Assembly (NCBI GenBank): GCA_002633005.1
Contig: NMRA01000066.1
Location: 337,144 to 401,143, forward strand
From: Phoronis australis
Taxonomy: Eukaryota; Animalia; Phoronida
Reading direction: 5' to 3'
DNA: 64,000 bases
This document shows, one piece after another, positions 922-57,800 of the stretch; positions within the stretch are counted from its first letter, which is position 1, and the number at the start of each line of letters is the position of its first letter. The notes beneath the pieces are model-generated. The model searched no databases. It saw only the letters and a program-made list of their open reading frames with translations, and was not told the DNA's origin. The translations under genes and the position numbers were made by a program.

Positions 922-985
922 TTTTTACCGCCGTATAATCCAGGATTCACAGCAAGTGGTATTACTGTGAAGAGCAAGGGCACTC
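922..985 (-). CDS. aGPCR exon: end of TM4 / ECL2 (GVPLLFTVIPLAVNPGLYGGK)
   Basis: TTTTTTCACTTGCAG acceptor, GTAAGT donor; phase 1 continues W-G from the 5937 exon. Confidence 0.8.
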
Positions 986-3900
986 CTGCAAGTGAAAAAA
1001 TACGAGACTGATATACTCACAAAAATACTATGTAAATTATTGGGGACAAATAAAACAAGAAGAATAATTTGTATTTTAAGTTGTATTGGGAATTTCAGGG
1101 TCACAGCTCTACAAATAAATATTTCACAGAAGGAACCAGATGGGTTCCTTAAATACAAGAGATAACACACACATTTAAATTAATTGACAAACTAGCTGTA
1201 CCGGTACTTAGCATAGCCTGGTACCAATGCAAACTTTCAAGGTTTGTTTTCAACTCACGTAACCAAAATGGCATACTTAAACTTGAGTGAATCAAGTTAG
1301 CGGCGGTGAAACTTCCTTTGAAATCGGTGTAGTCAATTCTTCTCAATATGAATCAAGCAAAAGCTTTCGAAGGTGGTGCAGCAAAATGTTCCAAGGATTA
1401 GCTATGACTTTAATGTACTTATTTTCGGCCTATATTACATTTCCAACTTCAATTCACTTTTCAAGCCGTGAAAGGCCGACAATAAGTACATTAAAGTCAT
1501 AGACAATCCTTGGAACACTATGCTGCACCACCCTCGAACCCCTTCCCCCCAAAAAACAGGTGGCGCTTCGAAACATGACGGGTGTGTTTTAGAATTCGAG
1601 AAGCCTGCAAAAATATCAGCTCTAAAACCTAACCATGGAAGCGAACACGTTCATGCAAGGCATAAAATCTCCACTCCAGGACTCGGATATAGAGGGACTG
1701 TTCATAGAAATGTTCAAACGTACTCTCAAGGAACGGGACGAAACTGACAGTCTAAATAGAAAGGTAAGTGAACTGGATGAACGTTTAGACGACAGCGAGC
1801 AATATTCCAGACGAAACTGCCTGGTAATACACGGTGTAGAGGAAAATAAGGGGGAGGTTACTGATGAGCTAGTAATAAACATAGCCAAGGAGTTGGAAGT
1901 TGACCTGCCCACGACGGAATTGGACCGTACCCACAGGTTGGGTGCTTTTAACAGAGATGCCAGGGGTAAACCTAGACCGATCATCGCTAAGTTTATTTAT
2001 CGTAACCAAGGGCGTGTCTCGATGTGAAAAATACATATCAATGAAAATCTCACAAAGAGGAAAGCTGCTATTTTTGTACAGTGTCGCAGATTAGTGAAAC
2101 GGACAACCCTGTTTATGGAAATCCGTAACACCACTACAGACTACTCAAAAAGAAAGAAGAAAAAACACATCAATTATGAACGTAATTTAGAAGAAATCAT
2201 TAATAGGCTGGTAAGCAAAGGCAACCCGACTGAAGGTGATCTAACAACTTTAGAAGAAAAAAGACTAATTTACAAGAATTAAGAACAGACACGTTGAAGG
2301 GCTATGTTGTCCGATCAAGAGCAAACTAGATTGAGAGTGGAGAACGCCCTACCAAATATTTTTGCAACTTAGAATGAAGGAACTTTTTTAGTAAGTGGAT
2401 ACATGCTATAGAAACAGAAGAAGGAAAAACTATTACGGATCAAAAGGAAATTTTATGGGAGACAATGATTTTTTTACAAAAACTTATATTCTTCGAGGTC
2501 TGAGAGTGAAGAAATGTTAAATAGTGTACTCGGACTTTGCCAGTTCCCGGTACTTTCGAAGTTGGAGGCAATCCAATTAGAAAATGAAATTAATATTGAT
2601 GAATTATTTGAGGTTTTAAAAATACAAAAAACGAGAAAAGTCCAGCCTTGGATGGCTTTACGATGGAATTTTTGAAGTTCTTTTGGGAAGAAATAAAATA
2701 TTTTGCATTGTGGCACATTAAATGTAGTTTTGAAAAAGCACAAATGTCTACAAATCAACGGACTGCGATTATTACATATATTCCAAAACCAGACAAGCTG
2801 AAACAGTTTCTGAAAAACTGGCGACCAATAACTTTATTGAATAGTTTATACAAACTGGCTTCGGGATGCGTTTAAAAGTTCTAGACAAGCTGATTGCAAA
2901 CACCCAAACTGGATTTATCATAAAATATTTTCATATATCGAATAATGTTGGCTTTGAAATTGAAATTATCCAGGACTTCGAATACAAAGTCCCAGGAAAC
3001 ACTATCAAAAGCCTTTTCAAAATCTATCAACACAAGTAGTCCTGAAATGTTGTGTTTGTCTGTATAATTAATAATATCATAAATTAGTCCTGTGTTCTCA
3101 ACCATAAATCTTCCTTATAATAAGCCAATTGCCCGTGTCATGCAAAATGGATTTCTGTCAGATAACATCATACTGGAACACGGATGTCGATCAGGTGATC
3201 CTTTCTCCCCTTGTATTTTTATATTGTGTGCTGAAATTTTGTAGATATTGATTAAACATGATCCTGAAGTGAAAGGTTTTAAAATCGACGACGAAGACTT
3301 CATTATAACACAATACGCAGATGACACAACTTTCACATTAGACGGAACTCCAAGATCTTTGGCAGCATTTATGAACAACCTAGAGTTCTGTGCAGGGATG
3401 TCGGGGCTGAACACGAAAGTAGTGTGGATTGGAAGTAGAACATTCTCTCAAAAACTGTTTCACCGCACGCTTTGGAAACTAAACTGGGGTAACGTTGGTT
3501 TTAAGCTTCTGAGAATTAATTTCAGTGTGAACTTGGAAACTATGTCCAAAGATAACGTTGATGCAAAAATAATGGAAATGAAGAAGCTGATTAATATATG
3601 GTCTCGTAGAGAGCTGACTATCTTTGGAAAGGTCACAGTATAAGAAAACACTTGGGTTTCCAAAAATTATACATCTGCAAACGCTGCTCTTAGTCCCAAT
3701 GATATCACTTTTGGTGATATTGAAACTTTTTAAATTCATTTGGTACGGAAAACCTGATAAAATAAAAAGAGTACTCATTAAATCCATACAAGGGGGTGGA
3801 TTGAGGATGATTGATGTCAGAAATGTAATATGTCTTTAAAAATTTCATGAATTAGAAGATTCTTTTTAACAACATCTCCATGGACTTATTCGTTGCAAAA

Positions 3901-6900
3901 AGACATCGGGCTTACTAGAGATGGAATATTGAGTTATGGAGACTACATGTTAACTAGATCGGATAACTGTAACTCTTTTTGGAAAGAATGCTCTGCAGTA
4001 TTGGAGCAATTCTTAGTTCGCAAACAAACTATTTCAGGTCACGAAGATGCGATGTCAATTAATGTGTAGTCCAGCAGTAGTATTGCGGTGGAATACAGTC
4101 CTTGTATTTATGAGTCATTCGTTGAAAAAGGTATATATTTGTGAACGATTTTTAGACTGGAATGGTAACTTCTACACCGTCCTTTGAAAGTTTCAGACGA
4201 TTCATCAGATTAATGTCAGCTTTCTCAAATATTAGTCAAATGTTAGTGCAATAAAAATATATGAATACGTTTTCCAAAAACATAAAACTAAAAACAGGTA
4301 GAAGGACCACTTGTACCTTTTTCTCTAAAAATATCAATTTGACGAAAAACAGATGTCAGACATAATACCATCGGCACAAAAGAAATTCGAAGTTTTGGGA
4401 TTTACGCTATCAGAGAAGATGTGGAATTTCTACTACAAACTTCCACATGAATGTACGAATGACAAAAGCTTACTTTTGTTTTAGTTTCGCTTACTGCACA
4501 GAATTCTACCTACTAATTATTTTTTAAATAAGATTAGACATGTGGACTCAAATGCTTGTACTTTTTGTAAATACTTTCCCGAAACTCTAGAACATTTATC
4601 CTTTGAATGTGAATATGTTAACTCTTTCTGCCATGCAGTACGTCTCTAGTTAATCACTGCAATGCAAGTAAATTTTGAAATAGACAAAACCACCATTGTA
4701 TTTGGTCTTCAAAATGAACAGAATATAATTTTGAATTGGTTCCTTTTACAAACCAAAATTTTCATTTTTAAAATGTCTTAACATTTTTTTTGAGGGAGTG
4801 TTTTAATGTAGAATTAAGTGCTTCGTTAAACACATGAAAATTTAATGAATACAAAATATGGAAAGATTGGAAATGAAGGGAAGCAAAGAGTTGACCAGAT
4901 GCCAGAACAGAAATTTAAGTAATACTGTTTAACTTGGAAGTAATAATGAAATGTTTTCTCGTCATTTTTGCACAGTTCTGTACGTTGTTGTGTTGTGTTG
5001 TGTGTATCTGTATATGTACCTGTCTTTTGTAATAAATGTAAAAAATATGATCATAATTGATGAACGTAAAGAAAGTGAAACATTGGGACGGTCCCGGACT
5101 ACATGGCGAAAGAACTACCCTTCGTCCCGCAGGTAGTAAGAAAGCGCATGCCTGGTTTTGACCCCGAATATCAGGCACCCTTTCACAGGTCATGTCGGAA
5201 ACCGCCGAGGAGTATGGCTGTGTAAATATTCCCAATTTCAAACCTTCAAAAGTACCGGAAATGAAAAGGGCGTCTTTAAGAAAGGGGATTCTGTTCGATT
5301 CAAAAATAATCTGACAAACGTGTTTCATCCACCACCTCCGAATTTCCTTGTCTTTGTTTGATATCGGGAAGGAGAAAACGAGAAAAACTTGACATCACGC
5401 ATTCAAAGATATTTGCCAAGTTTATCCAACTTTCTCCCGCCGAAGTTTCAGCCCACGGCACAGTAGTAATACTTTGTTGACATTTTATGTAAGGATAGAG
5501 TAATGCAGCCGAGCAAACCTTGTAAAGAATACGACAACAACAAAAAACAGGTGGAAATGCAATGTTGCAAGTTTTTTACTGATGTTGCTACATTATTGGT
5601 AAATACAGCGAGATTAAAGTGTCGCTGTGTAATCCGGGACGGCTGTATTAGTGCTTTATGCGGTTTTTACAAAACATAACTTCGTAAATATCACGTTACC
5701 CACTATCCCACGGTGACCTATTTACCATTTCCTGTCTTTTTGCCTCACTCATTCCACTTCATGGATGTAACCTGACTGGAATATCGACACTCGATGTCTT
5801 ATTGTTTATAACTGATGATGTCTAATGAACAGACGAAACGTTGAATCGATAAGAACTTGTTCATTTGTGCGGCGATTGTCCGTTTATTGATACTATTATG
5901 GCCGAAACTGATGTCGTGTACATAACTATTACTCACCCCACGCGAGTAGATATGCCTTCTTCATAAACCCCGGTATGTATGTAGCCATCACCTTGACGAA
6001 TCTAAGATACTGCAAGACCCCTTCGACCAACATCCAGGCGAAGGAGACGAGAATCAAGTAATGAAGAAGAACCGCCACAGCAATACAACCGCCTTTGTCT
6101 TTCACTTGTTCTACTCCACCTAAGAACAACACCACACTTAGCAAAAGGGCCAGTGATAGGTTGAAGATCGTCTGCTGCGAAGGACCTTTGCCAAGTGCTC
6201 TGAAACCTCTGCCGTAACTATGTTCTGTGCAGCAGCCACTGAAGAACCTGTGTAGAAATAGGTTTACTTTGCACAAATACTGAACCGTGAAGGTATTGAT
6301 TGCATGATTCCTAACTTCTCAAGCACACGCATTAAGTGTGTTATATTCCAGCCGAATCTCATCTCAGTGGCGTTTTTATTTGGGGAATACTCTGAACGCC
6401 CCCCTCCCCCAACTCAAAATCCTGGATCCGCCTCTGTATCTATCTAAACATACAGCGCATTACACTCTAAACTGAAAATTGACAATACTCAGCACCTGTT
6501 TCGAAATAATTTACAAATGAGATGGAGCTTTTATCATGATCAAATACCACTGTGGTCAAATCTTTGTCCAGAGTTACGGCTCCCAGTCGTTACTTCTCTC
6601 AGCTAGTAGAAGGTAGGTAGATCAAATTTCCGGTATACAACCAGGCAAAAAGATTTTCGAATTTGAAACAATAGACTGCCACCCCAGAATCTCTATTACC
6701 TAAATTTGGATTGATGAGCGAAGAAACGCCCATTGGCCATGTGCCAGGATACTCACCTGGATAGCAAGAACGTAACAATGGTGCAGAGAAGTCCCACAAT
6801 GGACAATGACAGACCAGCAATGCTGATGACGGACAGAGCGAGCTTGTTACCTTCATCCATATAATTCCCATACGTCCCGTGGTTGTTGTTAGCGGTTGTA

Positions 6901-9900
6901 CTATTTTTCCCCTGAGTCGTGTCCTCATCATGTACACCCTGACCTGGATCAATTGTTATCCCGTTTACATCTTGACCTTTATCAACGGTTGTTCCATCTA
7001 AACCATGAATGTTGCCAACACTTGACTCATTTTCATCCTGATCTTTGCCAACACCTGTCCCGTTTACATTCTGACCTTGGTCAACACCTGTTCCGTTTAC
7101 ATCCTGAACATTGCCAACACTTGTACCGTTTCCGTTCTGATCTATGTCAACACCTGTCCCGTTTACATTCTGACCTTGGTCAACACCTGCTCCGTTTACA
7201 TCCTGACCATTGCCAACACTTGTCCCGTTTCCGTTCTGATCTATGTCAACACCTGTCTCCTTTACATCCTGACCTTTGTCAACACTTGCCCCGTTTGCTT
7301 CTTGTTCTTCGTCATTAGGTGTAACTTGTTGATCCGGGTCTTGACCAATAGTTGACACTTGTTCAGCCAAATCATAACCAATAGTTGTCTGATGTTCAGC
7401 CGGACCTTCGTCAGTGGGCTTGTCGTCATCACTGGGTTTGTCTGGTTCATCCTCATCACGGTCAGCAGATGTCTCATAATAATTCTCAGCAATAAATGTA
7501 CTGTGCACATCCTAAGAAGCAACAAAATGGTGTCTTTCTGTAACTGTGCAGGCATTTCTCATCAAAAACTAGAACAGCAGTCGTCCAGTTGATACAAGTG
7601 GACCGATTGCGCACAATGGACTGGAATTCTCTAGATGTATCAAACACAGTTGATGAACCAAAGCAATTCACGTGAAAGGCTAACGCAAAGGCTATATACA
7701 TGTATAGGTTATCCCATATAGGCCCACACAGGAATACTACTGCCATATCCTATCGAGAATTCATTCGTTTGGGAATGTTCCAACTAGACCAAACGCTGGC
7801 TCATGTACATGTAGGATTCATAACAACCGCGAAACACCAAAAGCTACTTGGTACGCAAGGCCATGGTTCTAACAGAAGACCGTTGTGCTACTTTCTAATT
7901 TATGGTTTTAAAAAAGCATAGGACGATTCACTAAATAATGGAAACTTTTTTCCAAACTAACCACACGTAATGTTATGCGTGTCCACGTTGATGTAAACCT
8001 TTGCACACATTCTAAAAATCATTGAAAGAATTCGAAAATGAAAATTACTGGTTTTCAAACCAAACTGCATTGTTTTGATTGACGTTGGAAGGCCAATATG
8101 AATTTAGGTGTCAAATCCAACTGACAGATAAAAACATTACGCTCTTTTTCATCATCCGGGTGAAGTTTTCATACTTCAACATTATCGTAACTTAGTCTTT
8201 GTAATGTACTTCAATGCAAAATTCTGTTTGCCTAATGTTCTTACTTACCAGCAATAGCGCAAAATTTGTTAGGTGATCGCACATACAAACGTGTCGTAAA
8301 CCAACAGTACCGTTGGACCAACATCCTTCTTGACTGAAGTCTCCAAGTTGGTAGTCCCAATAGCCGCACACCGTGGTGACGTTGGTAGCGTTGTCCTGTG
8401 CATAAATTACCACGGCATTTTAACGCCTTCAAACGTTTATTTTGCTGTGACGATTGGCCATGATTTAGGTAAAAAGTGTCGTCGTGAACGCGACCTTCCT
8501 TCAATACCTCTTTTCACAGCTTTGCTGTTCTTGTAACGACAGACCAATACACTGTAGATCTATTGGTAATTCTAAATTTATGTTCGTTAATACAGAAATC
8601 CGTAAATTGTAGATTTTGTTGCTACGTCATTTTCTTTTAACATTATCCTTACCCTGATACTCACTCTTTTAACTGGAAGAAACGACGTTGTAAGAGGATC
8701 TTCAAGATTGAGCTGCATTGCCGATCTGGTGTTAATTTTGGCCGAGATGACTTTACTGTAGGTCTCCCATTTACGAACACTTGAGTAGTTAGCGGAGATT
8801 TGGAAACGAGTTTGGAACAGTTTCCAGTTGTTGTAAAGGATGAAGCTTGTCTGCTGGCCTAATGACCACTCTGAAATAATAAACAGAGATTACCAGCGAA
8901 TCGAGAGTCAATTTATTTACCAGCGGTAGTAATTCCTAATGTATAAGGCAACTTAAGGACTTGGTTACCAGCACTGCAAATATTCATTAAGGTTCTTAAA
9001 GTTCTAGAAAAATGTCGGCTTACTTTGGAACAGCATATCTCATAAATGGTTACTTGAAAAGGACTATATTAACCTTGATATGTTGGACAGCCGTGCCTTC
9101 CACAGGAAATTTGCTAAATTTATTCGTGAATTCTGGTGAACTTAAGTTGTAGACTGCAACGGTTTACCAGTTAAATTTATGATCCAAAATTTGCTGAAAT
9201 TAGTGTTTACGGTTGCATGAACTTCGAGCACTTTGATCTGATAGACATTTACACTACGCACAGTCACCAAAAATCACACCCCTCGGCCTGGCCGACATGT
9301 GCGAGTTTCTTACGAACAGTTCTCTCTTCATCAACAGTGCTCTCACAACAACGATCTTCAAAAGAAATAACTACTTTTCGAATACACTGGGGAAAATACT
9401 TAATGGCTATGAAAGCATCGAGAATATTGTCTTTGTTCCATTACCAACAAGTATCTTCAAGTTCTTTAAACTTGCATTCTTTCGATGGCGGTCAATGAAT
9501 GCTATTAATACAACCCCCATTTTGGCCGATTGTTCCACATGTCTTGATGCTGCTGTTCGTCACATGATGAATTTCCGAAGTTTTACGAACAATTTAAAAT
9601 GTCATCTACTTCCCTTAGTGAATAGCAGACAGCATTAGATTGATAAGGGGTTATTGCCTTCAATAGAGGACCCAGTCTGATAGGGGGTCCTGACACTCAA
9701 TTCCACCAACGATTGGCTCTCGAATATGGGCACTCTTTTAACATAAAGTTATCACAGAATAGGGAAAATCCATTTCAAAAGCGGATCTTTACTAAGAATA
9801 GGATGACAAGGGCATGAAAAAGTGGCCATGGAGGCCACCAATAGACCCCCCTCCCCCAAGGACTGGGGCTCCTAAAGGTGATAAAACTTGATGTCTGAAA

Positions 9901-12900
9901 TACAGGAAATGAGTAGCAATTGGTGCTATCACCTGAGGGCCCCTATACGACAGGTTACCAATGTCAAAAATAGAAGAAAGAGACCAACACAGAGAGTGCA
10001 CATAGAGAAATGCATTTGTCTTCCTAAATTTACATCTCTGAATCAGCAGTAAGACTATCTATACTGAAAAATGAACCCCACCCCCGCACACGCAAAAATG
10101 TCCTGGTCAGGGTCTCCAAAGGTTAATCCTGCAGTGACAGTTGACGCAAGCTCTCGTAAATTTCTTATCTTCTGCAACCTCCGCTCTCTTATTCTCCTCG
10201 GTCCTACGCCTAAGTCTGTCACCACGATTTCGAACCCGGACTTTTATTGCAACATTGTCACATTTTAAACAAGATTAATACTAAAGAAGGTTATTGAGGC
10301 AAGTCGCAAATTGTTTAATTATGGATGAACTTGCAGCACCACCTGTCGCAATTTGGACAAAGATGCGTGCATGCACGGAAAACGCACCTGCCAAGATTTC
10401 GTCGAGCTTCTGTCAAGATTTAGCCAAAATTAAAATTGGTTCTAGCCGATAGGAAATGGATACTACGTTTTTTGCATTAAAATTGCATCGAATTTTGACG
10501 CTGTCCATTTCATTTTGAAAACTACCTAACGCAAGCCGGCCTTGTTCTTCTTAGTCTTGTTAAGGGAAAGAGAACTTATAGTGTTATAAATGCTTGTCTT
10601 AAACCTTACGTACCTGGAACATAAACGTAAGACGACCAGCCAACCTCCGGCGCTAGGTATTCGTACGACGTGAAAGTATTGCAGAGTTCGCAAGTTTTCA
10701 ACGCTCTGTTAAAGTTGAAGCCGACGCACACTTCCGACGACATTGTGCTCTGTAGCTTGCCAGTACATTGAAACGCGCAATCACTGACATTTGTCGAAGC
10801 GACAGTAACCTTTTTACTAAAAAGTATTTTGGTATTTCTCGTCTCGTTAAATAGATGCAGTACACCTGCAAATCCAAATATAAAGTTTTAGCAAACAAGT
10901 GTAATAATTACCCTGGACTTGAGAGACGGGATTCAAACAATGATCGAAGACTCAAGTCGGTAATTTAATCAAAATGTGCTCTACAACAGGTCGAGTTTCA
11001 AGTTTTAACTCTTAAAAGAGTTAAGCAATTTGGGACCCCGTCGTACTTCAGCTGGCCTTGGGAATCGCTTCAGTCTTTAAGCAATTGAAAAGAATGTCAA
11101 GGCATTTAACTGTTGAAACTTTTATGTAGTTTTCTTCGTGCACAACTATTTTTTGTATTCACATTTCTCAAAAATGTATTCCTTGTTGATCAATTTTCAT
11201 TGAAACCGGGGCCTGGGGTCTAACCTTTGTACCCGAAATCGAATTTTCCATTTTTTTATTTTAATAAGAGCACTGTTTATCGACCTGTGCTATAGTATAC
11301 TAAGGTTTATCAAGTGAGTTTCTAGTTCAACTTCCAACCTGATAACCCCAAGGTTCGAGCTACAGACTACGGGGTAAAAGCTCGAGATTTCGAGTTCAGA
11401 CAAGAAATATCAAATCAAACCTTCGGTCATTAAGTGCAAGGTGTAATAAACCACAGTATACTACATCACAGAACAACAGATACGCATCGTGAGTTTGCAC
11501 AAAAATGGAGTGGAAATATCAAAAAAATTAGTTCAACTTCGAGTTCAAAGATTATAGACTCGGGGCCAACCAGTTCCCGTGAAATACTGAGAAATACACA
11601 CTTGAAGCAAGCCATTTAAGATACACTCAGCATATTGGCACTAAATGAGGCAGCTAACTGATAGCGCAGTTCTTTGTCTGGGCTATGCCCATGAAAGGAC
11701 TACCTGCACGCTGGCGAGTGTTGCAATGACGAATTAAAGCAAAGATAACGAACCTTTAGGGTCTACGAGAGACATGGGCAGCTTGATGGTCAAATCGGTT
11801 GAGTTAATGCTGCGATTGACTCCAACGTTATACAGGGGTTGCACGGACGTCTTTCTTATACCATCACTTGTTGCGTTGGTGAACAGTTGAATGCCACTGA
11901 CTTTGTTTGTTTCGTTCACGCCTACGTAAAACGTACCGATGGCAATATTGGGCAAAGTCTGCACAAAGCTAGAGCTAAGGTCGATGTGCACTCTTCCGGT
12001 AATTATCTCCATAGCTCTTGTCAATCTGAAAAGTTACGTGTAAAATTGTGGACGCCATTTGTACGACTCTCTGCTGCGATTGTTCTAGACAAGAGCTTTG
12101 ATTTACAAAGAAGCACTGAAGATGGTTGATAAGTTGTCACCAGGGCGCGCTACATGAACCAGATTTCCAGTCCATCTGCTGGGTCTATCCTTCCCGAAAT
12201 AGAAACGAACCTTACACGTTTCACAAAACAAATAAAATACGCGACAGAGCTCTTTTAATTCACTGTTGAAGCACCGCAGTTGTAACAATATCGGTCTTCT
12301 TCAGACTCTCCATACCGTAATGGGGGCAGTGTGGTCTCCAGTGATAGAGTCGACACCTTCCAAAGTGAAGATTACGGATAATAATCAATTTTACTCGTTA
12401 TCATTACTAATATCAATATCATAATCATTACCCTTATTTTTATTATTAACCATAATGCAGGAATTTTGCTAATCTCTATTCAAGCGTCCCCTGAAACACT
12501 GGAAGTCCGCTTTTGCAAACAATACCGTTCTAGGGATAGTCTACCTTGACGACGCTCCGTCGACCTCTTGAGAATTCGCAATTACTGAATCATTAGCGCG
12601 CATCACGTTGTCAAAGATATGTAGAACGTTTTTGACTACCTGCAAGAACACAAATTTGACTAAATATCACTACTAACAATATCACTTAACAGTCTGTTAT
12701 TCTTCTCAGTGCCACGCAAATAAATATAGATTATACCTCAATGTCAGCCTAGAATGGCCAATACAACCGTGTAAAAACCCATTTGGTTATCTCGCTAGTG
12801 AGTATTTTGTATCTTCAGACTTCTCCCGATGCAACTGATAACCTTCGGTCAAAATTGTAAAAATACAACTCACTTGTACGCATCAACATGTGATTATATC

Positions 12901-25000: not shown

Positions 25001-28000
25001 CTGAAATGATTAGCGATTACGCTTGTGAATTGTCGTTTTCCTGTTGACCTCTAGAAATGTGTAGTAATCAAAATGAAGTATTCCTTTGTTTGCATTTGAT
25101 TTGTTTGTGTGTGTAATTATTTTTAGAGCTTTCTTAAGAAGGCCTTTGAACAATTTTAAGTTTTGCGTTAACTTGTCCACAACAAAAGTTTCACATGCAA
25201 GAAAAGTATATAAAGAAACAACATTGTTAAAAACAATTTTAATTTTCCCACGCAATGGAGTCCATAATCAGGCATATCATGTCCAAAGGTAAAATAGACG
25301 GTCAGGCGGTTGGTTTCAGTTGTTTTCTCTCACCTGTAACAGAGTAGTCAGAGAAATATTTACAAATTATGAAAGAAAACACAAGAATACTTTAGTAAGG
25401 CAGAACATACTTGACGTTTCATCTTCGTGTTTATATGTAGAAACTAATAATATTTGTACCCAAGTCTTATTTAAAATCTTAATTAAACAATGTGAAACAG
25501 GCTAAAAGTGATTTAATAATGTGTATTTTTCACGGCACCTAAAATGTGCATCTGACCTCAACAAGTAAAATTCATTCTAGGTGTCAATTTTTAATCCAAT
25601 GCAATGCTGTGACGTTTACTGAATAGCTTATTCGTGTTAATTCGGTAACTAACCTGGTAGTCCTGGGGGTGGGGTCCGCTATAAAATAAGGAAACTCACT
25701 CGTCTAGTGGGTTTTATTCGACATAGCATAGCTTTGAAGAGAAACTGCTGTGAAAAAGTCACCCTTGACTTCTGAGCGTCACGCACCATACACTTCTTAC
25801 AATGGGCACATTCCCACCCCTGGAGGACAATGTATTAACATGTGCTGCTAGCCTACGCGGCATCCGAGTCCTGAGTGAGTTTCCGAAAAGAGTCACATAG
25901 TTCCATTCAATAAACCCGTTATTCAGTGGGGTAACTGGTGGTGATAACATCACTGAACAATGTCGATAGAAACTTGATTGCTAAAAACTTACCAAGTAAC
26001 GTTATGCAGTCTCCCAAAGGGGCTTCGGCATCCACACACTTTTGGTCAGTTGGTTGACCCTTTTGACCACAATGCTCCACGAATGTAGTAACCTTAGGTC
26101 TTTTGGTACATATAATTTGTGGCCACCTGTCGAAGACTTGCACCAGGGAAAATAGCAGTAATAGGGTTTTGCGCGACGACGTACTTTGATAACAATCCGT
26201 CTTTTTTACCAGCTGTTTACATGCAGACAGTGACGCATGTGCGATTCAATCACCACTAGTACAGCAGCGACACCGCGAGGAGAATTCTCCGAATAGTCCC
26301 ATTCATTCTGTCGCCCCGAAATGGACTGACTGTATCCACTGCAAGTCTATTCACTGAGAGAGACACCATTTTAGTTTGTGATTTAAGAAAAACACCGCGT
26401 TCAGCCCAAGAAGCAAATTTTTGATTTACACCAATTGCCACACTTTGTCTCAATTTGTTCTTTTCTCAAATGAGAAGTATTTTCTGAGTTTGCAAACATG
26501 ACAGATCCTTGAGACCAGGGTCGGCACATACATGTAGTTGACACGCAGTGACAGGTCACATGCTTGTTCCTTCCACGCACAGGAACCACATCCAGTCTAA
26601 ACAGGGGACAATCTGATATCAGTTTCACACCGTGTTAACGATGAGTAAATTAATGTTTACGGTAACCGGGTTTGTGGGAGATTGAATCCCGGAAAATATT
26701 TGCCACTATCATATATAATAAAAACCATATACTGTACATAACCTGTTTCATGTCTGCACAATCGAGGATAAATGGCAAACACGCACCACGGAAACATGTT
26801 GCCAGTGGGAGAGTTTCATATGGCAACTTGGCAGCGTGGGACCGGATAGGAAGCATTTTATAACTTTTGTTTAAAAACACATTCTGTGTAATCACATACA
26901 CTGACTGTAAAACGGTATTTTCACGAAGTCAAATTTTCCCCTAGGCGAAAACAAAATAACTTCTGGTTCAGCTAGGCGGCAATATAAGTCAATGGTCCCA
27001 CGTTGCTTCTTGAAAGTGTCCCATCGAACACATGCAGCACGATTTGAGGACTGAGGAAAACTATCGCTTTTCCAACTTTAATAATGTACATGTACTCGGC
27101 GGCCAACTTCAATTTCCTTACTGGTAACAGTCCGCAGAGCATTTCTAATTTTACACGTTCGCAGTGATCAAGACTAATCGAAGTTCAATATTTTCTCGTG
27201 TACATCTATATTTTCAGCAAACTTCATGAAGACTTTTTATAGTCTGCCTGTTCTATTATCGCCATAAACTGCTACATTTTTGCGTGAGCTTGCAAATAGG
27301 CGTGGTCCACCTGCCCGTTACCAGGGTTCAGGACAAGAATAATTTTTAGATGTTAACAACCTTCAGTGGATTGTGGACACCGGAAAAAGATCTAAGGTGA
27401 GCTAAAAGAACATGTGTCATCTAGCACTTGTTGCAAGACTCTGAAAAGGCGTCTACTGCATTTAATCCCTTTGAAGGCGAATTTAACCCACAAAAAATAC
27501 CACTCTCCGAGACATGAGGCGCATCGGCACCAGAGCTAAGATTCTTAAGTGTTACCTTAGATAGATTTCTGAGAGTGCCGGTAACGGATGACTCTTGTTC
27601 GTTGCAAGGAATCACACGGGGGCTGACCCACGATAGACCAATGGTAAAGTTCCCCACACACGTCAACTCACCCAAGGGTTGGCCAGCTAGAAAATACATC
27701 AATATCACAGCAATAATTCAAATGCACTAAAATCTTGTTGAGGAGGGATGTGAGCAAAAATAGATATACATGTACTGTGATGCTTCTGTGGCCTTTGCAT
27801 CCCTGTACACTATGGCCCATTGCTATCAGTGACGCATTTCATGAAAAGTGACAGAAATTTGGTCTTACGCTTCCACTTCGTAATTGTTGAAAAAATGTTT
27901 TTCCGAATAACGATGAGCGCATCACAGTCTAGAAATAATTTATAGAAATAATATCTGTAAGAAACAGTTAATATGTGTATGTTGAGAGACTTAGAAATTC

Positions 28001-31000
28001 TGCTCAAACGAGAGATCATTGTTTTTTTTTAAATAGTTGTTTGAAGCATAAGACAACATTTATGGCTGAAGTCTTGAGTCACTTTTCAGGAAGCAGAACC
28101 CTGGTTGTGACTCGGTTAAATGGTTTTGGCAAGTGCTTAACGTTAGTGGCACGTTACAGTGCTCATTTCTGAGTTAAAACCTTCTTTGCAAAATAACGAA
28201 AAGCACTTCATTAAAACTAGCGATTTTGATTTTCTCTCAGCCTGAGCCATGAATTCGAACGGTTGCCGAATGATGTCTTCATATAAAATACAATTTGCTG
28301 TACTTGGGTAGCACGTTTTCAGTTGGGCAAAATTGATTAAATACACGACACTTGTCGATGTTGACTATCTTCTTTCCGTTCCGTTCGTATCCTCAGAACA
28401 AAGTGCGACATTCAACAGACCATTGGTAAAGTAACTGTCCAAGAGACATGATAAAAAGACGCGTGATATTTCGAAACATACATGTACTTGTTTCATTCTC
28501 AAGTGAAAACAAAATGGCGCTGTAATACCAAAACAGAGCAATAGCTAGAAGCATACATAGTGGGACACGCCGTCTGGAATACTGTAAACAATGGCACATG
28601 GAGGGATTAACGGCGGGGAAGTCACGCAAATAAGTGTAGCGTGCGGCGAGACCCTGTTTACTGCTCATTAAAAATAGGCTTCTCGAATACAATCGATGTC
28701 TAAAACACGATGTGATGCGATTAAACGCGTTGTAGACGCTTTTGATTGCAATCTAGAGCTACTAGCTTTTTCGTGGGCGGCGCAGCACTGAAAAAAGTGT
28801 GGACTATAGCCTTCCCGGCCACCTATGGTGCGCAGCTCTGTGGTGCTATTGCTGCGTCATTTTACATCGATTTGAGAATGAAACAAGTAGCTTTCAAAAT
28901 ATTGTGTGTCTTTTAATCGTGTCTCTAGGTTGGTATACCAATGTTCCGTTGAATGTCAAACTTTTCTCCAAGGATACGAACGGAATGGAATAAAGATAAT
29001 CAACAACGGCAAGAGTCTAAAGTTCTTCGCGCTTAGCGCGAACATTTCTGACACGTTACAACACTGCAACACTGGTTATTATGGGAAAATTCTCACTTGT
29101 TCCGCAAATCTGTTCGCTGGGTATGGTACCAGGAGAAGACATCGGGAATGTTATCATTACGTCCCCGTCCGTAATTCTGGTGGGATAACAATACTCTGAA
29201 AACAAAAATTTCAGATATTTGAAATGACTTCATTTCACATGTTAGTCTCTCAAGTTCTGACTATTGCTGCATTCAGTAGATCCTCAAAGACGCATTAGGC
29301 ATTTATGTACACGCGAGCCCAATCAAAATACATGTAGGTTCTATAAGTACAAGTTCTAACTGGTACAGAGACCTTTTTATTTTGTGAACTGCGAGTAAAT
29401 CTTCCTTCTAACAGAAGGAAAACATTACAAGTGGACTGCGCATTGGTCATGAAACAAAGGCTTACCGGCCGATAAGAGAATAATACTCTGCAAGTCTATG
29501 TGTCCACCCGTGAAAGTCTTCATAGCTAGTTGGAGCACGTCAAGTAGGTTCTCTAAGTCGCTCGGTGGCTCCTGATATTGGTCAGAATAAGTCGTCAATC
29601 TAAAGTCCACCCCAAGCCCCGATGTCCTTAAAAATGGTAGCAGAATATACAGGTAAATGTTGTAAGGTATGGTTTGAGGCAACCTTTCCGAAACATCTTA
29701 CTGTTTCATTCCCTACCTTTACATTGACATTGACATAAGCAGTAGCCAACATGTACAACAAATTTCTTCCATACAAAAACGGAGAGCAATGTTTCTACTT
29801 TTTCATTTTATATGAATTAACATTCGCAAAAAAGGAGACAAATTCACGTTCATGGACTAAGTTGTACAAATCTGTTTGGCACAATAGCTGTGCCAAGGGC
29901 ACGCTTTTGTTGTAGTTATAGCAGTAGTAGTGGAGATGGTTGCGATGGTGTTGGCGATGGTGTTGGCGATGGTGTTGGCGATGGTGTTGGCGGTGGTGTT
30001 GGTAGTGATGGTCGTTGCCGTGGTTGTGCCGGTATTGGTGATGATTCTTGTGGTGGTACAGGCGTTGGTTGTGTTACACTGGTGGTTTTTTGTAGTTGGT
30101 AGTTGTGGTGGTGGTGATGGCGGCGTCGGCATGCCCCAGTACCGGCGGTGAACAGTAAATGTAACTGTTGCGAGATAAGAAGCACGGTGGGAGAGGGAAT
30201 TCGGCTGAGGCTTGTAAGATCTGATGCAGCTGCAGAGCTATAGGCCTTACACAGTTTCGTCCCATGTTTTTGGCAAGTTTGCGAACCCGCGAAAGGCATG
30301 TTATCTGTCGGTAAGATCAAAGTTCTCTGATTTGCTCTAAATTACCACACAGTGCTACGTCATAGTCTCTTCTTCATCCCCATCATCTTGTTCCATAATG
30401 AACAAATATGGACCGTTCTCGAGAGCATTATCAAGCTATGCATGTAGATGGACCGAGAAACAACAGTTTCAACAATAAACTAGACAAGACTTCGACAGCA
30501 CTCTGTCGGACTCTGTCGAACTCGGAAAAAATACCTTATCAAAATTATTTGTCAGTTTAAAATATCTTATTTTTCGGAGTTTCATGTGACTTAAGTGCGA
30601 ATAGCCGTTGTTCATTTGTCTATGTATTCACTGGATGTCGACAACGCAAGTGGAGAAACATCTATCGAGAGCTGGGATTCTAGGAGAAAATGTATGCCTT
30701 AGTCGCGCTTTTTGCTCCAAGCCTTTGTCAAATTTAACATTCTGCAATGTTGCCTGACGCCAAAGGGCAACAATGCTCTTCCCAAATGACCGCTAAATTT
30801 ATATTTGCTTAAAGCCACTGATTCTTCTTTCCTGCGATTTCTTCGACTCTTAATAAGTTTCTTTGAAATTCTGTTTTCTATACTCTTTAACTTTATTTAC
30901 AGAAGCAGTGGCTTACATGTATACTTTCTGCAGCGTGTAATTGGCCTGATCACGAATACTGGCATATAACCTCCAAGAGGCGTGGATGGAATCTAATCTT

Positions 31001-32731: not shown

Positions 32732-35700
32732 TGCTGTTAGGAACAACAAATTCATGTGGTATCAAATGTAAGCAGTGTTATTTTTGCATAGCAAGACTTT
32801 CTACATTACAGCACCTTCTGAAATTCTGACACATTAGCACTGCCTGTAGCATGTTAAACTAACGAAGCGGAAATGTAGTCACGCTTAAGTTGTTTGTCAT
32901 TGTTTTTGAACAGACAAACCACGCTTATAATCAAGCCTCGTTCCTTCTAACTAATTCATGTATCAGCCGCGGGCATATGAGAGATTAGAATTTTTAAGCT
33001 TAAAAGGCTTTTGGTGGGGTGATATGCCACCCTTCAGAGTCTCTGGGGTTAAAATGCACTGTTTTCTAAAGACACGTGTGTAAAGAAATGTTATTTTAAG
33101 GACTATTCGGCACCTTTGCTTTCGATATTTAGCTTTGTCTAACACTTGACACGTCACACATTGAATTGCAACAGCAACTAAATGAAAAGTGAAATAATAC
33201 AAAATATGGCAGATGGCGATGTAATGAAAATAAATTCAAAAGCTCACTCGTATATAAATTATCTATACCGTGTTATACTCAGACTAGTCGGTTAACATTA
33301 GACACACAACTGCTCTGTATTTATAGTTAACGCAGTTAATATGGCTGTGAAAATCATTACAGAAAACATGTAAGTTAATTTAGTATCGTTCACTCTGGTA
33401 GAGACAAAGTAGGTCTAACACAAATTACCAAATTGTTTTATTACAACTGCCGGAGACCTAACGGCCGAGAAAGGTTTATAATTCCAAGCTTCACATATAA
33501 AAACGCCGAAGTCGTCTGCCCCCACAACCTTGGTATCACCTGACTCAGATCTGTGAAGAAAAAGACAAATCGTAAAATATCAAGCAACGAAAGAAGTTGA
33601 ACATTATTCTTTATCTATTTTGTTTACTACAATATTAATGTCCACACTAAGTACTCTATCAAACCACCAAACCAAGCGGAAAATGGGCTTACTTAGTCGT
33701 TATTATTTCATTGTCAACTGTATCATCGTGTACAAGTCTAGGCAAATTAGTACAACTTCTCCACAACAGTGATGAGTAGACTAGTCCTCTGAATTAAACT
33801 GGCATTCATACAGTCTGGCTTGTGAACTTTATAGATGGCATTCACCGATATACTAATCTGTTTCGATTTTTGTCCGAAAACGACTAAAACTTTTTTGTTT
33901 TTAATAAAGATGACATTTGTTCGGAAGAAGTTTTGTGGGATAACAGTTCTAAACGTGCTTCGTTTCTACCAAACAAACATTTCACTCTAAGCAATATAAT
34001 CCATAGCAAGAAACAGCAATGCAACAAAAGAGTACAAACAATTCCACGCATGAGCGGCGCAACCTCGGCCACGCGTGATCGAAATTGGCATGCCGTTCCC
34101 AGAGTTCCTTGTGTTGACTTACCCTTGAGTAGGCAGTCCATTTACACGGCTGGACACAGCAAAAAAGTCGCCAGCAGGGGCACAAGTCGGGTAATACAAG
34201 TGTGTCGTGAGGATGACGAAAGAGGCGAAGTATAGCACTTCATCTGACGGCTGCTCGATAATGCTGACCGGAGCTGAACATAGACAAACACCACACTGTT
34301 ACAAGCAAATTTATAACAGTCTTTTTGAAAGAGTTGCTGGTCAAGTTTAATGCAAGCAACCCTCAAACTTAGAACCTCAATCTGTTTAATAATGCAGAAA
34401 GACCTCCTGGTAATACGTAGGGCCTTTCTTGCACATTTGACTTAAAAACGTGGTTCCGTCATAATAATAAAGACGCAGTTGTAAGAAGCATATTTTTAGA
34501 ATCCTCGATCTTTCTCCTTTCAGAAATACACATTTTCAGTAGTTGACAAATCATACTTTTTCGATATTTGACTTAGAAGTGAGGAGTTAAAGTCTCAGAT
34601 AACCTTAATCTAAATCCACGGGTACTCACACAAACTCGCATTCTTCTCACAAATAAAAGGGTGTAACTCCGTGCAAGGAACTTTCTGGTAATGATAGGAT
34701 TGGTTGATCATTATACTCTCATTGACCATGACGTAGCAGAAATTCACCAATTGCGTCTCGTTCGCCGCGAAGTGCTCCTCAACGTTAAATGACGGGTCGA
34801 CAACATTTCCATCCGACCATTTGAAGTTACCATCAAATGATAAACCAATGTACGTCTTATCGGACGCAGACCCTGAAATCACGTGGAGATAATTTCACAT
34901 GCAATGATATCTTGATTTGTTCCTGTTCGACCACACCATAACTTGTTGACCTGAAAGAAACGGTCAGAACTTAACAAATGCCGCCAATGATCCCTGGTCG
35001 CACTGTTTCTGAAACTGCTGCCGCAGTTTGCACAATTGCCTTTTAATCGTGATCTTTCTATCCACATTCGGGTTATCTGGAAGAATGTGTGCGAAGCTTT
35101 AACTTCAGGCCTGTTGGTGATTAGAGTTGACTTGCAATAAAGAGAGAATCATTGGTGGCGGAAATAAACTGTAAAACAAATAGAAAACATCTGAACGAGT
35201 TTTAATTACACTTGTTCCAAGGTGCGAGGAAACATACTGTTCAGCATTTCCGAAGTGCTAGCAACAGCCGCTTTTGCGTGCTGTCGTAAGAATTCGTCAG
35301 ATGGCCTGGCAAGGTGCCCGCTCTCATTCTGGCAGCGCTGCTCAGCATCGGCATAAAGCAGAGGCTCGGAGTGATGTTTGTAACAGATGTCGAGATGAAC
35401 AGCGCCTAGCCAACCGCTTCCGCATTTGGCAACTGAAAACGAAAGTAAACAACGTGAACACGAAGCACTTAACCTTGTAAAGAACAATGGACTTTTTAGT
35501 TAGGTTTGTATTTCACTGGAATTTGATATTAATACCAGTCAAAGCAATTCATTACTGGTAGTGTTTTCAGCTTTTAATTGGCACTACTTTTTGAAGTGTC
35601 GCACTAAAATATGATTTTTGATTTCCGTTGAAGCGAAACCCGACTATTTAAATGTTATTTGATCAGCTAATAATGCGGAACTAGGAACTAAGGGAAAGTG

Positions 35701-38700
35701 TGTATTTTGGTAAATGAAAGAGTATGTGTATTTTGTTAATAAAAGACATATTGCTCCGCTGCCTTGACAATACGTATCGGAGATGGTGATCGGATTTCTA
35801 TTCATTAGCAGGCTACCTATCTTCTAGCGGATCACCCTGTATGTCTTTATCAAATCACGCAATTAACATGCCACTGTTCAGCATACCTGTCTTTAGTTTT
35901 GGAGTAAAACCTTTATTCTCGCAGACAACTGGAAGCATTTCGTCACAAGGTCTCGTTCTTAAAGTCTTCACTGTTCCATTCAGATTTAAAGACACACAAT
36001 CACCTGTCTTTGTGAATGGTGTCGGAAAAGAGCTCCTGGCAAAAGAAATTTACTATATCACTGCAAGATTCGACCACTTGTATGTTCTCTACAAGGCGAA
36101 GCTATTCATACACTGTAATTCTAAAGATCACAAATAAAAAGTTTAGCGATGCCCACGTGTTTCATGATAGGTGCCGCTAGAGTAAAATTACGAATAAATC
36201 AGGCTCACATAAGGAGTCGAACTATTCGCCATAATAAAGTAGTTTAGAAACGTTCGCAGAACTGGTGCAGAAATCTAAAACAAAGTAACAAATTCTTCCC
36301 TTAATCTAACTGCGATCTTGACATAGAATTTAGACGGCAGGAAATTAAGATACTTACGACCACTTCATGTTTAGCAGTGGAATTCCGTCCCAGTAAAATT
36401 TGCCGCTTTCATCATCGAAATGACCCCCAGTCCAATAGTCGCCAGAATGTAGAACTAAAACAACACTAAGTGAGTAAAAAACAAACATACAGCCATCCTT
36501 GTTTCTAGTAGCCTTGGTGCTCCATCAATATAGGATTCACCACATTCGTAGTGGATTTATAGGGTGCTCTTTCTTTGTGTCTTTTTATCATTTCGGTTCT
36601 TGGTCAGCTTTCGACCTAGGGTGTATCCTTCTTATTTTGTATTCCGCGCATACACGTCACAGTTATCCAGAGGAAACCCGTATTCACACGAAATGATAAA
36701 ATGCTTTCATAGAGTTAACACATTTTTATTGTATGCCTTTTCATGGTCAGATTCAAATTTAAGATCGACACCTTTAGTAACTTGGTCCGCCGTTTTGACG
36801 GTACTTTAAGTCGATCGACCAAGGATTTCTTACTCCCCGAGGTACATGTAGGTGTACCATCTTCATCCACTGCAGGTACCAGATATGACTTTCTCAGTTT
36901 ATGATTAACTAAATGCGCTCCCTAATACTCAACATGTATGACAGTTTATCTACCCAAACCTCTTTTTTACAGAAAATGTGCAACTTAAAGCGTCGAAAAT
37001 TTTGAAATGATGAATTATACATGTTTTATTTAGTCACAGAAAAAAAGTATTTTTTCAAGTGAAAGTACATACAAAATGCTTCCTAGAGCTCCGGGCCCAC
37101 TGACTAAATGTTCCTAATGCTCGCGCCGGCAAACACATTTCCATGAGTGATGCCGGATAACGTGGCCCGAATTCTAAACTTACTCACCGAGGCATCAAAG
37201 CATTGGTTGTTTCAGTTTCATGATCAACCGAATTTTCAGGGTTTTGATGTTTAGACGTGTATCAGAGGCCTAACAAGTAAAATGAAGTGGAAAGTATAAA
37301 ATAGGAAGTCATCTGACAATCTTTGACACCTGAGCATTGCCGGAGAAATGACTAGATGGTCCGTAGCACTTACTGTGATCAGCAATAGGGATGACATCCG
37401 CTGAGATCATAAAGCCTAGCTGTTCTCCACATATTTCCTTTCCTCGACGCCATGAGTTGGACTCCACAACTTTTTTGTAGCAAACATTTTTATTGTTACC
37501 AGTCAGGGTCACGTTCCATCCAGGCAGACATATTTGCTGATCTGAAGATAAATTCAGAGAAGGTGACATGAAAACACGTTATCTTTCTTCTAAAAGGGTT
37601 CTAAAACCCGTTTTGGTGATTTCGACAAACACTGAATAGCTACTCACCACTGTTGCACGGTTAGCACGTTCCCTAAAAGATAAATGCATTATTCAGCTGG
37701 AGCAGTAGACCTAAGACAGGTGGTCCCTCTGGCCTTCAGCCATCGATTTGCTCACCCAAAGCGTTAGCAACCTTTCAAGAGTGTAAGACGTTTTCAACAT
37801 TGGCTTGATTTGAAGGTTGAGAAGATATACATGTTTCTTTGCTTCAAAGGTTCCACTAGTAGAGTTGTCTAATCGCAGTCGTCATCTGTTGTTAAAACGA
37901 AGTTCCTTAACATTTAACCTTTGGCCCCAAGAAAACAAGCAGTAAAAATAAGCAGTAAATTTTTAGGGGGGGGGGCTTATACTTCTTAGCAGTAATATTT
38001 GGCGTACAAGGCGATAAAAATGCAAAATATTGATAAAAATGGTATCATGGGAATATGTTGCGACAACATCCGTGTTTGCCTACAATACAATATAAGGCAA
38101 AGGACAATCGGACGAAATACCGTTTCCCTGTCCTGGCGGCTAGTTCTATCAACGGACAAGTGGTAACAACTAACAGGACGTCAAAATTCTAATTACAGAA
38201 TGGCCACCATACCAACTTTTCTAGTAATTCAACTTCATTCTCGGTCATCAGGGGAGACAACTCTGACGGTGAGTTCGGCTTCCACCCAGCCGTCATGACG
38301 GGAATTTCCGGGTCATGTACTGTATGTATTAGGACTGTATCAAGTTAGGCCCCTATTTCCCTTACTGAGATTTAAATTTGTGCAAGCTACGCTATAGTGT
38401 TTTAGTTTATGACAATCACGCTGGTGTTTTGTGCCATGTTCCCATGTGGAAGAAGGTAGATACATGTAGGACGTCCGGTATAATGGTACTGGGCCACCCA
38501 CTTAACCGTGCATTCACAGAAGTAAGCCTACATGTACCTATATCCACCGTCTTACTAGTAAATAGCATACAATTAAAGTGCTAACTGTCGCCTGTTGCGA
38601 TTTATTCCGTGCCCCTGTACTTGACACGATACTGTTGCGTTGAGTAACGCTAAGCTTGGGACTTAGCTAAAATCGAACCAAAGTCACGTGTTCTCATTTA

Positions 38701-45420: not shown

Positions 45421-47114
45421 AGCTTTTAATGGTTTGCAGGTGGACATTCTGTAACGACAAGATACCAGTTTGAGCTTCCAGTAATTGTTAAATTAAGACA
45501 TTGGTCAACGTATGTTCAGCGTTGTACGGGACGTAGGCCTACATGCAGGCCTACTGCGAGACGTTAGCGTTTAGTGGTTTAGTCTCTCACTCTCACTCTC
45601 GGTGTGACATTGTATGCTTGTCTTTGCCGAGTGCTACCGGAGCAGCAGGTTTTTAAAGTGCATTGTCAGTTCATTTAGACACTCTAAAAAGCCACCATAT
45701 GAAATGATATCTGTAATCCAGTTGCAGGCGGGTTACGTAGCCTGCTTAGCCCTCATGCCCGTATCAGTTAATGAGCAGAACTTCACCAGTCCTCAGTCAC
45801 TGGGGACCTCAGTGACTGAATTGAACAAACCTGTATACCTAGGACTACTAGGTACATAGCTGACAGCGCTGTTAACAACAAGTCACGGGTAGCTGGCTAG
45901 CCACTTTGAAATGTACTCATGTATTGGGGTTTGGCCGGGTTTATAGTTCTTAGTTCTCTTGAAAAGTTGATGACTTCAGCCTACAATCACTAACGTTCTG
46001 TACACTTTAATGCTGAATAAAAATCCAATTTAGTTTAAACCAGATAAGGAAATGGATTTTGAGTCCATGGGCTGAATTTCAAAATTGGCTGTGTAATGGT
46101 GTTTTTTTCAACAAAAACCCTAAACAGCACCATCTGAGGCGGCACAGTTCAGACGGACACGTAGCAAGAGTTGCCCTATGGCCGCTGCCAAGCTGTTCAG
46201 CAAATTCTCCCTCGCGTTGGTTAAACCATATCAAAGTTATTTGTCACTATAAGTACCTTCTGGACATAGGGACGCCTTAATAGGCTGTTGATGTCTTTAA
46301 CGTTGCCCAACTATAGAGCAAATATTACCATATGAAATTATCATGATTGAACTGATTTGACCAACTATATGTTGCTGCACGTTGTTGCTTACGAAGCAAA
46401 CAGTATATATTGCAAATGAAACCCCAGTTAACAGGTCGTCTGGATAGCCTAGTGACTAGGGTAATAACATTCAATCATTTAGGCGGGGTAACAACACAAA
46501 ATCTGGTTGAACGATAGCCTTCATTGAGCTGAGACGCGTGTCTAATTTTATCAGAACTACAGCTAATCTACATAAGAGACTACATGCCTTATATGTTTCA
46601 GGTATTTCTGCCATTTACTTTATTCGCATAATGTCATTCCCTGAGTGTAACTTTGCCATTGTCAGGTCTTTGGGACCCATTTAGTGAAATTAATGAATTA
46701 AGGTTATTCACTGCCAACTTAACTAACATTTGTCACTGGCCTCATTATACAAATTTAAGCTCTATACCACCAAACTTGTATTAAAGCATAACAACAAAAA
46801 CTTTTCATGCAAGTACCTTAATTTTTTACTCGCAGGTAGACTATCATTAATGCATTGTTGTTTTCTCTTTTTCTGACTTCCTTGCCCTCAGGCACAATAA
46901 TGTTACATCAAACTCTGGCAAAAGTTTGACAAAAGCGCTATTTTAATAAAATTTATGGCAAAAGAAATTTTACTAAATATCCAAATAATTATGACAAGTC
47001 ATTTATGCATGCTTGGCAGAATTCAAAGTCTGTTGAGTTCATTTTGATAAGTACTATACATAACAGCTTTTAAAATTTCCTTTCTTGTAGCTCGCTGTTG
47101 TATGAAATGTACTA

Positions 47115-47303
47115 ATGCAAGCCACTCAAGCAGTGAACCTGTCCTTTGCTGGCTGTGGGTTCCTGGCTGTCTATCATCTCGGTGCAGTAACCAGTCTGTC
47201 CAAATGTGCTCCGAAGTTGTACTCAAAGATCAGAAGGTGCGCTGGAGCCTCTGGAGGAGCCCTAGCCGCTGCCGTTGTAACGCTCGATCCTAACATGGTG
47301 CAG
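47115..47303 (+). CDS. PNPLA4: PNPLA4-like exon 1 (Gly-rich loop, GxSxG)
   Basis: In-frame upstream TGA at 47103; CAG/GTGGGT donor. Confidence 0.85.
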
Positions 47304-57537: not shown

Positions 57538-57800
57538 TTAAAACGATATAACAACTTCTCCCTTTGTCGCTTTTTTCAGCAGAACATCAGTTGTCATGCC
57601 GCCGAGAATGTCTAGTTGGGAAATACTCATCCCGAATTCCTTGTTCACCCAGTTCACCATGTCGACCGCCATTAGGGAATCTACACCGTAGTCGGTCAGT
57701 GGTCGACTTTTGTCGATGGCCTCCTTCGATATGTATAACAAATCACTCAATTTATTGATGAATTGCTCCTCTAGGTCTTCCTGGGACACCTTGGGGGCTT
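57538..57800 (-). CDS. PKS terminal exon: acyl carrier protein
   Basis: TTCTTACAG acceptor; PLTDYGVDSLMAVDMVNWVNKEFG phosphopantetheine motif; stop codon. Confidence 0.85.

Follow-up and report, generated by a model that had tools for sequence, protein, structure and literature searches.

A long, acidic repeat spacer between the Stachel and the first transmembrane helix of an adhesion GPCR gene in Phoronis australis

[quoted passage not shown] Canonically, the GAIN domain lies directly N-terminal of the first transmembrane helix (TM1) and is joined to it by a short Stachel linker. Spacers between GAIN and a membrane anchor have been engineered: a fluorescent protein placed between ectodomain and anchor lowered cleavage of ADGRE2 from 45% to 10%, at least four helical turns caused the same loss and similar effects were seen in other subfamilies (PMC12488864). 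In ADGRL3, GAIN keeps close to the membrane, can move only within limits and is linked to signalling (PMC11615224). BAI3 (ADGRB3) functions in neurons without Stachel or GAIN, a precedent for G-protein signalling that needs neither; this independence was shown by mutation, and the receptor is not described as having a long linker (PMC13322242). Long glycosylated stalks occur in the family, such as the 2000-residue stalk region of ADGRG4 (PMC13197933), but their place is in the shed fragment, upstream of GAIN. A naturally long Stachel linker did not turn up in the accessible parts of the literature, including PMC13197933, PMC13470171, PMC11697300, PMC6667449, PMC11039983 and PMC12716839, with subscription papers and supplements outside this scope. 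Here we describe such a linker, downstream of GAIN, in a gene of Phoronis australis (assembly GCA_002633005.1, contig NMRA01000066.1, positions 337,144 to 401,143, forward strand). This stretch of 64,000 nt is referred to as the window, and all positions are counted within it.

The adhesion GPCR with a long spacer between Stachel and TM1 is a real, transcribed gene, as seen for one gene in one species. On the minus strand, eight GT-AG exons join in phase from GAIN to TM4, giving 650 codons with no stop or frameshift; the gene runs past the left end of the window after TM4, and TM5–7 lie outside it. The features of adhesion GPCRs (class B2) are present, with a 7tm_2 match in the TM2–4 exon (E 8.9e-12), GAIN, GPS and the HL/T triad, and five exons align across the whole GAIN of nine relatives. 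What this receptor does not share is a GAIN domain directly N-terminal of TM1. From the cleavage site to the TM1 glycine it has 239 residues versus 23–33 in 95 of 95 relatives (a stricter set), and from the cleavage site to the TM3 histidine 304 versus 83–102 in all 101 relatives with a pattern-detectable GPS. An earlier note on this DNA had described this anatomy and set it against the normal short linker, and on both counts it was right. Judged by the sequence features tested, the gene is an adhesion GPCR, yet one without the short linker of canonical Stachel-activated receptors. Its parts are as follows.

34613..37569, minus strand: C-type lectin exons, putative N-terminal part of the receptor gene (Pfam Lectin_C; match to relatives' N-termini)
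29860..30237, minus strand: Thr-rich, mucin-like open frame, putative part of the N-terminal fragment (sequence only)
12920..13069, minus strand: GAIN exon 1, subdomain A helices (profile of 14 relatives; GT-AG and phase)
12545..12639, minus strand: GAIN exon 2 (alignment to relatives; GT-AG and phase)
11754..12025, minus strand: GAIN exon 3 (alignment to relatives; GT-AG and phase)
8665..8870, minus strand: GAIN exon 4, subdomain B (Pfam GPR128_GAIN_subdom_B, E 0.002–0.006, below the curated cut-off; sense RNA depth)
8249..8395, minus strand: GPS exon (Pfam GPS, E 1.9e-10; X1 RNA depth stops at 8395 and 8248/8249)
Between 8270 and 8269, minus strand: HL/T cleavage site, followed by the Stachel core TNFALLL at 8269–8249 (within the GPS exon)
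7512..8248, minus strand: intron of 737 nt, GT-AG, phase 0, TAG acceptor at 7513–7512 (depth zero except a genomic repeat of 30–40 nt near 7726–7765)
7484..7487, minus strand: GAG acceptor, possible minor alternative giving 9 residues fewer (one X2 read ending at 7485; not decisive)
6858..7511, minus strand: spacer of 218 residues (composition; RNA depth; AlphaFold pLDDT <50 for residues 38–212)
6936..7430, minus strand: 33-bp (11-codon) tandem array of 15 units with a young 99-bp higher-order core and no indel
6757..6857, minus strand: TM1 and the conserved segment before it, closed by a phase-2 donor after 6757 (33 residues align to Pinctada P0004 at 70% identity; predicted helix)
5937..6199, minus strand: TM2 to mid-TM4 exon (Pfam 7tm_2, E 8.9e-12)
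922..985, minus strand: remainder of TM4 (alignment to relatives; GT-AG and phase)

The relatives were obtained by searches with the TM2–4 exon (10 proteins plus the best 150 of 1,808 representatives, 159 in all). Their sequences come from gene prediction, which might remove an insert of this kind as an intron, a warning for gene prediction generally. Most of the 58 without a pattern-detectable GPS are fragments that start downstream, and six with an atypical GPS are short-linkered by eye. In this sample, few parts of adhesion GPCRs are as fixed in length as the Stachel linker, and no orthologue carrying the spacer was found among the relatives searched. The relatives with names come from bivalves, abalone, chitons and priapulids and bear the labels ADGRG2-, G4- or G6-like or hypothetical. 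Molluscan lectin receptors (Pinctada FSP39_006407, Tegillarca KAJ8320959, Saccostrea XP_061169878, Haliotis LOC124132157 and Liolophura XP_064605625) align in GAIN, GPS, Stachel and TM1–4, with 55–64% identity in the TM region and about 26% in GAIN. Several of them bear N-terminal C-type lectin domains, the pre-TM1 motif of the window gene matches that of Pinctada, and we infer an N-terminal C-type lectin module in the same gene here. They differ in linker length and in keeping the second tryptophan of the GPS, which is phenylalanine in the window gene. In a tree of 37 rows the window gene has no close kin and groups firmly with no molluscan relative (end branch 0.84 versus a median of 0.3; best identity 64%); the tree took in no vertebrate ADGRG, and an ADGRG-like name reflects database labels and similarity. 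Vertebrate ADGRG6 and ADGRG2, the best solved-structure matches of the nearest relative, have the same order of GAIN, GPS, Stachel and seven-transmembrane core (7TM). Across the linker, the alignment of that relative is gap-free for ADGRG6 and has a 2-residue gap for ADGRG2, and neither receptor has a long linker, unlike the window receptor.

The boundaries of the spacer exon could be fixed from the sequence. The GPS exon ends HL/TNFALLL at a phase-0 GTAAGT donor (8249), which together with the Pfam match bears out the intact GPS that the earlier note saw closing one exon. The next exon, 7511–6757, has 755 nt (251 codons plus 2 nt) and ends in TM1 at a GTGAGT donor; it is open as had been reported, but longer than the 242 codons given then. 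Every AG between 7700 and 6790 was scored for the pyrimidine fraction in the 20 bases upstream, and the best of all (0.75) precedes the TAG at 7513–7512, which is canonical and in frame. A 252-codon open frame begins at 7511 too, coinciding with this acceptor. Since a canonical in-frame TAG lies 27 nt upstream, the rare GAG acceptor at 7485, which the gene model had been thought to need, is not required. The proposed tethered peptide TNFALLLNYY is also corrected, as the Stachel core is followed by D-V-H and not N-Y-Y in the 7511 form. The in-frame acceptors between 7000 and TM1 (6938, 6923, 6911 and 6842) have tracts of 0.35–0.45, none above 0.45, in agreement with the earlier failure to see a pyrimidine-rich acceptor near TM1. 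The exon is open in one frame only (no stops versus 10 and 30 in the other two), and none of 20,000 base shuffles was stop-free. In two relatives, models that omit the GPS exon pick up again at the very Asp with which the 7511 exon starts. The insert therefore grew within the exon, and an exonised intron as origin of the spacer was ruled out, as the insert sits inside an exon that opens with this conserved Asp. Further downstream, the TM2 exon has two in-frame acceptors on the minus strand, at 6199, which matches the relatives, and at 6247, which has the better pyrimidine tract and would add 16 residues, including two Cys, to the first intracellular loop.

Transcription was followed in RNA selected by species label, namely three raw-read runs (X1–X3, about one fifth of each read) and a contig set (X4). 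X1 and X2 had sense depth in all eight bins from 6682 to 7513. Mean sense depth over the spacer was 1.69 (X1) and 2.07 (X2) versus 2.17 and 2.12 in the TM1 bin, and intron bins were empty apart from short genomic repeats. A gap in X1 near 7370–7450 was covered in X2. X3 had no spacer reads; its matches to the GPS and TM1 exons spanned only 40–60 nt with several differences and were read as paralogues, and the X4 contigs held only look-alike pieces. No splice joint was listed in the RNA reads at a threshold of 3 reads. In 33-nt bins, however, X1 showed 60 letters ending at 7510 and two GPS-exon reads ending at 8395, the exon edge, and at 8338. The sums 60 + 91 = 151 or 60 + 90 = 150, with a one-base ambiguity from a shared G, fit one split read joining 8249 to 7511, deduced from binned depth; exactly 1 of 20 reads in X1 is without an unlike part. 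One X2 read stops at 7485, and the counts for this run imply that 1 of 2 spacer reads has a loose end of at least 20 letters, which fits either occasional use of the GAG acceptor or a poor read tail. Of the junction predicted earlier, 8249 to 7484, the exonic nature of the spacer is supported by the RNA, whereas the TAG just before 7511 is favoured as its acceptor and the GAG has only that one X2 read. Look-alike reads and a contig were also found at 8249–8395, 6768–6815 and 6015–6084 as matches of 40–70 nt with several differences, some of them antisense in X2. Going by such short, divergent matches to the GPS, TM1 and TM2–4 exons, close paralogues exist in Phoronis australis.

Between the start of the exon and the conserved motif ahead of TM1, the spacer counts 218 residues, with 45 Asp/Glu, 8 Lys/Arg, 34 Gly and no Cys, and a net charge of -37. 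It carries the seven N-x-S/T sequons that had been estimated (shuffled mean 3.2, P 0.02). The repeat has a period of 33 bp and comprises 15 units (7430–6936) with no indel among them. Eleven units match the core consensus in 23–31 of 33 bases and correspond to the roughly 11 repeats of 11 residues seen before, and four degenerate units upstream, missed at that time, match in 18–20 of 33 (codon-shuffle P <=0.003). Periods of 33 bp and 99 bp were both confirmed, and at lag 99 the core shows 92% identity. Degenerate edge units and a near-identical core indicate an array whose edges are old and whose middle is young. The length polymorphism suggested earlier by a recent 99-bp duplication was not shown, as no indel was listed in the RNA reads at a depth near 2. 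Neither of two tests gave more than weak evidence of selection on the array: among the five closest unit pairs spaced at 99 bp, 2 of 14 changes were synonymous versus 22% synonymous sites, and the absence of stops in the array was not significant (P 0.17). AlphaFold, run on the single sequence, gave pLDDT <50 for residues 38–212 and a confident TM1 helix; low pLDDT fits disorder, as weak evidence. A folded beta-solenoid is neither shown nor excluded by this model, in which no strand of 3 residues appears. The spacer has no match in Pfam, and the spacer exon found no homologue among 4,961 candidates. The GPS exon as query returned no candidate; both are weak negatives. An atlas search gave 7tm_2 leads only, all under 0.9, and no spacer homologue.

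In TM1–4, 41 of 46 columns conserved in >70% of relatives are retained, which equals the relatives' median. GAIN identity to relatives is 24–28% versus 25–34% among relative pairs of like TM identity, and decay of GAIN, considered as a candidate, is not clear at such near-equal values. The four Cys, His, Leu, Thr, Phe and Leu of the GPS are all consensus. The second GPS Trp, which by our own positional assignment is W S11.50 of the VWWL motif, is Phe here, Trp in 94 of 95 relatives and Phe in none; mutation of either Trp impairs rat ADGRL1 (PMC11697300). A PAN/Apple-domain exon of 252 nt (10614–10865, minus strand; Pfam PAN_1, E 1.3e-5) lies within a GAIN intron. Its two ends are in phase 1, and its inclusion preserves the frame and would place a PAN domain in a GAIN loop; alternatively it may be a terminal exon, with a stop just past the donor, or a piece of a nested gene.

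We give an about even chance to the explanation that the spacer uncouples GAIN and Stachel from the seven-helix core and that the Stachel is probably not the main switch of this receptor. Firstly, tandem repeats that expanded inside the TM1 exon lengthened the Stachel linker from about 10 to about 220 residues, into what would be a disordered, acidic, N-glycosylated stalk that may hold GAIN about 10 nm off the membrane. Secondly, the spacer would lower autoproteolysis as engineered spacers do, perhaps helped by the Trp-to-Phe change beside the cleavage site. GAIN would be unable to rest on the 7TM, and allosteric coupling would be lost. [quoted passage not shown] The receptor would then serve mainly as an adhesion molecule with a lectin head, and its intact 7TM would signal for the most part without the Stachel. 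The engineered constructs are among the closest known systems, but theirs are artificial, folded or helical spacers on single-pass anchors (PMC12488864), while the spacer of the window receptor is natural, repetitive and followed by a 7TM. Among the activation modes offered in the earlier note, decoupling has the most outside support and trans activation none, and a tunable tether is neither favoured nor disfavoured. Being natural, intact and transcribed, a receptor whose linker is twenty-fold longer lends itself to asking whether distance alone switches between Stachel-driven and Stachel-independent signalling.

Several observations weigh against uncoupling. The HL/T triad and Stachel core are fully canonical, although these residues are also structural, which softens the point. 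The Trp-to-Phe change is conservative, and no change is listed at its codon in reads of the look-alike copies. The published work on spacers was done in mammalian cells with single-pass anchors. Most of the Stachel pocket belongs to TM5–7, and these helices, like the pocket residues in ECL2, fall beyond the window. The RNA on the spacer is thin (about 7 and 9 read-lengths in X1 and X2). The main point against full uncoupling is quantitative. We estimate the leashed Stachel at 0.3–0.5 mM (from general polymer constants, glycans not included), and free GPR116 peptides have half-maximal effective concentrations of 17–107 uM (PMC9489211), so a freed Stachel could still activate the receptor.

This estimate and the canonical residues speak for a leashed agonist, which we regard as possible though doubtful. 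The receptor would still be cleaved and switched by its Stachel only after the N-terminal fragment is pulled off, with a soft tether that removes basal leak and sets gain; repeat number could tune the tether. The 10% cleavage that remained with an engineered spacer (PMC12488864) and the young 99-bp core are in line with this, but seven glycans and the net charge should extend the chain still more, no variant in length was observed, and at the amino-acid level the repeat copies show no constraint. That such receptors form a natural class, with cleavage and agonism kept, glycosylated 11-residue repeats acting as a heritable gain dial and a peptide that may reach neighbouring receptors, seems unlikely.

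The synonymous fraction and the non-significant avoidance of stops in the array would also be expected of a coding minisatellite expanding neutrally in a redundant paralogue under relaxed selection, with poor or no signalling and a spacer without a selected role. The look-alike copies in the RNA of the species (matches of 40–60 nt to the GPS, TM1 and TM2–4 exons), the low expression, the lack of a spacer homologue and the long end branch point the same way, although the branch may only reflect missing close relatives. Against this stand the unbroken 650 codons over eight exons and the intact TM columns. In addition, the edge units are only 55–60% like the core and still show no indel (P about 0.01–0.11 under assumed indel rates). 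We consider neutral expansion rather unlikely, and prefer uncoupling to it.

It is very unlikely that the spacer is an artefact or a minor form, with most transcripts spliced near TM1 or the repeat inflated by the assembly. The repeat length is known from the assembly and not from DNA reads, no joint reached the 3-read threshold and the junction is one inferred read; but a usable in-frame acceptor near TM1 is lacking, spacer depth equals TM1 depth while introns are empty, the Asp at the exon start is shared with two relatives' models, and the variation among the units shows that they are not one copied unit. Lastly, a substitute agonist (G-T-Y-G-N-Y-M-D before TM1, with aromatic, aromatic, Met and Asp at Stachel positions 3, 6, 7 and 8 by eye) or a leashed Stachel that activates a neighbour receptor, within reach of a contour length of about 80 nm, is highly improbable, as that stretch is separated from the TM1 Gly by 21 residues, a smaller distance than in any of 95 true Stachels, and aligns with the ordinary linker end, and no evidence of a partner was found for the trans form.

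The window contains other features, some of them within the receptor gene. An intronless open frame of 415 codons with an LRAT domain (E 4.8e-10) lies at 17484–18728 on the plus strand, antisense in the large intron of the receptor. An element of about 3 kb occurs twice, at 13200–16900 and 23500–26300, in copies that are 81–86% identical; one has a THAP-domain remnant (E 1.4e-5), and the element is likely a DNA transposon. The TM4 intron holds broken open frames (1600–4100, plus strand) that we take to be LINE-like. Exons at 47051–54089 on the plus strand resemble a patatin-like phospholipase (PNPLA2-type) by eye, with no Pfam match in the one piece scanned. An animal-type polyketide or fatty-acid synthase is encoded at 57541–62280 on the minus strand, in a long single exon with KS, AT and DH domains.

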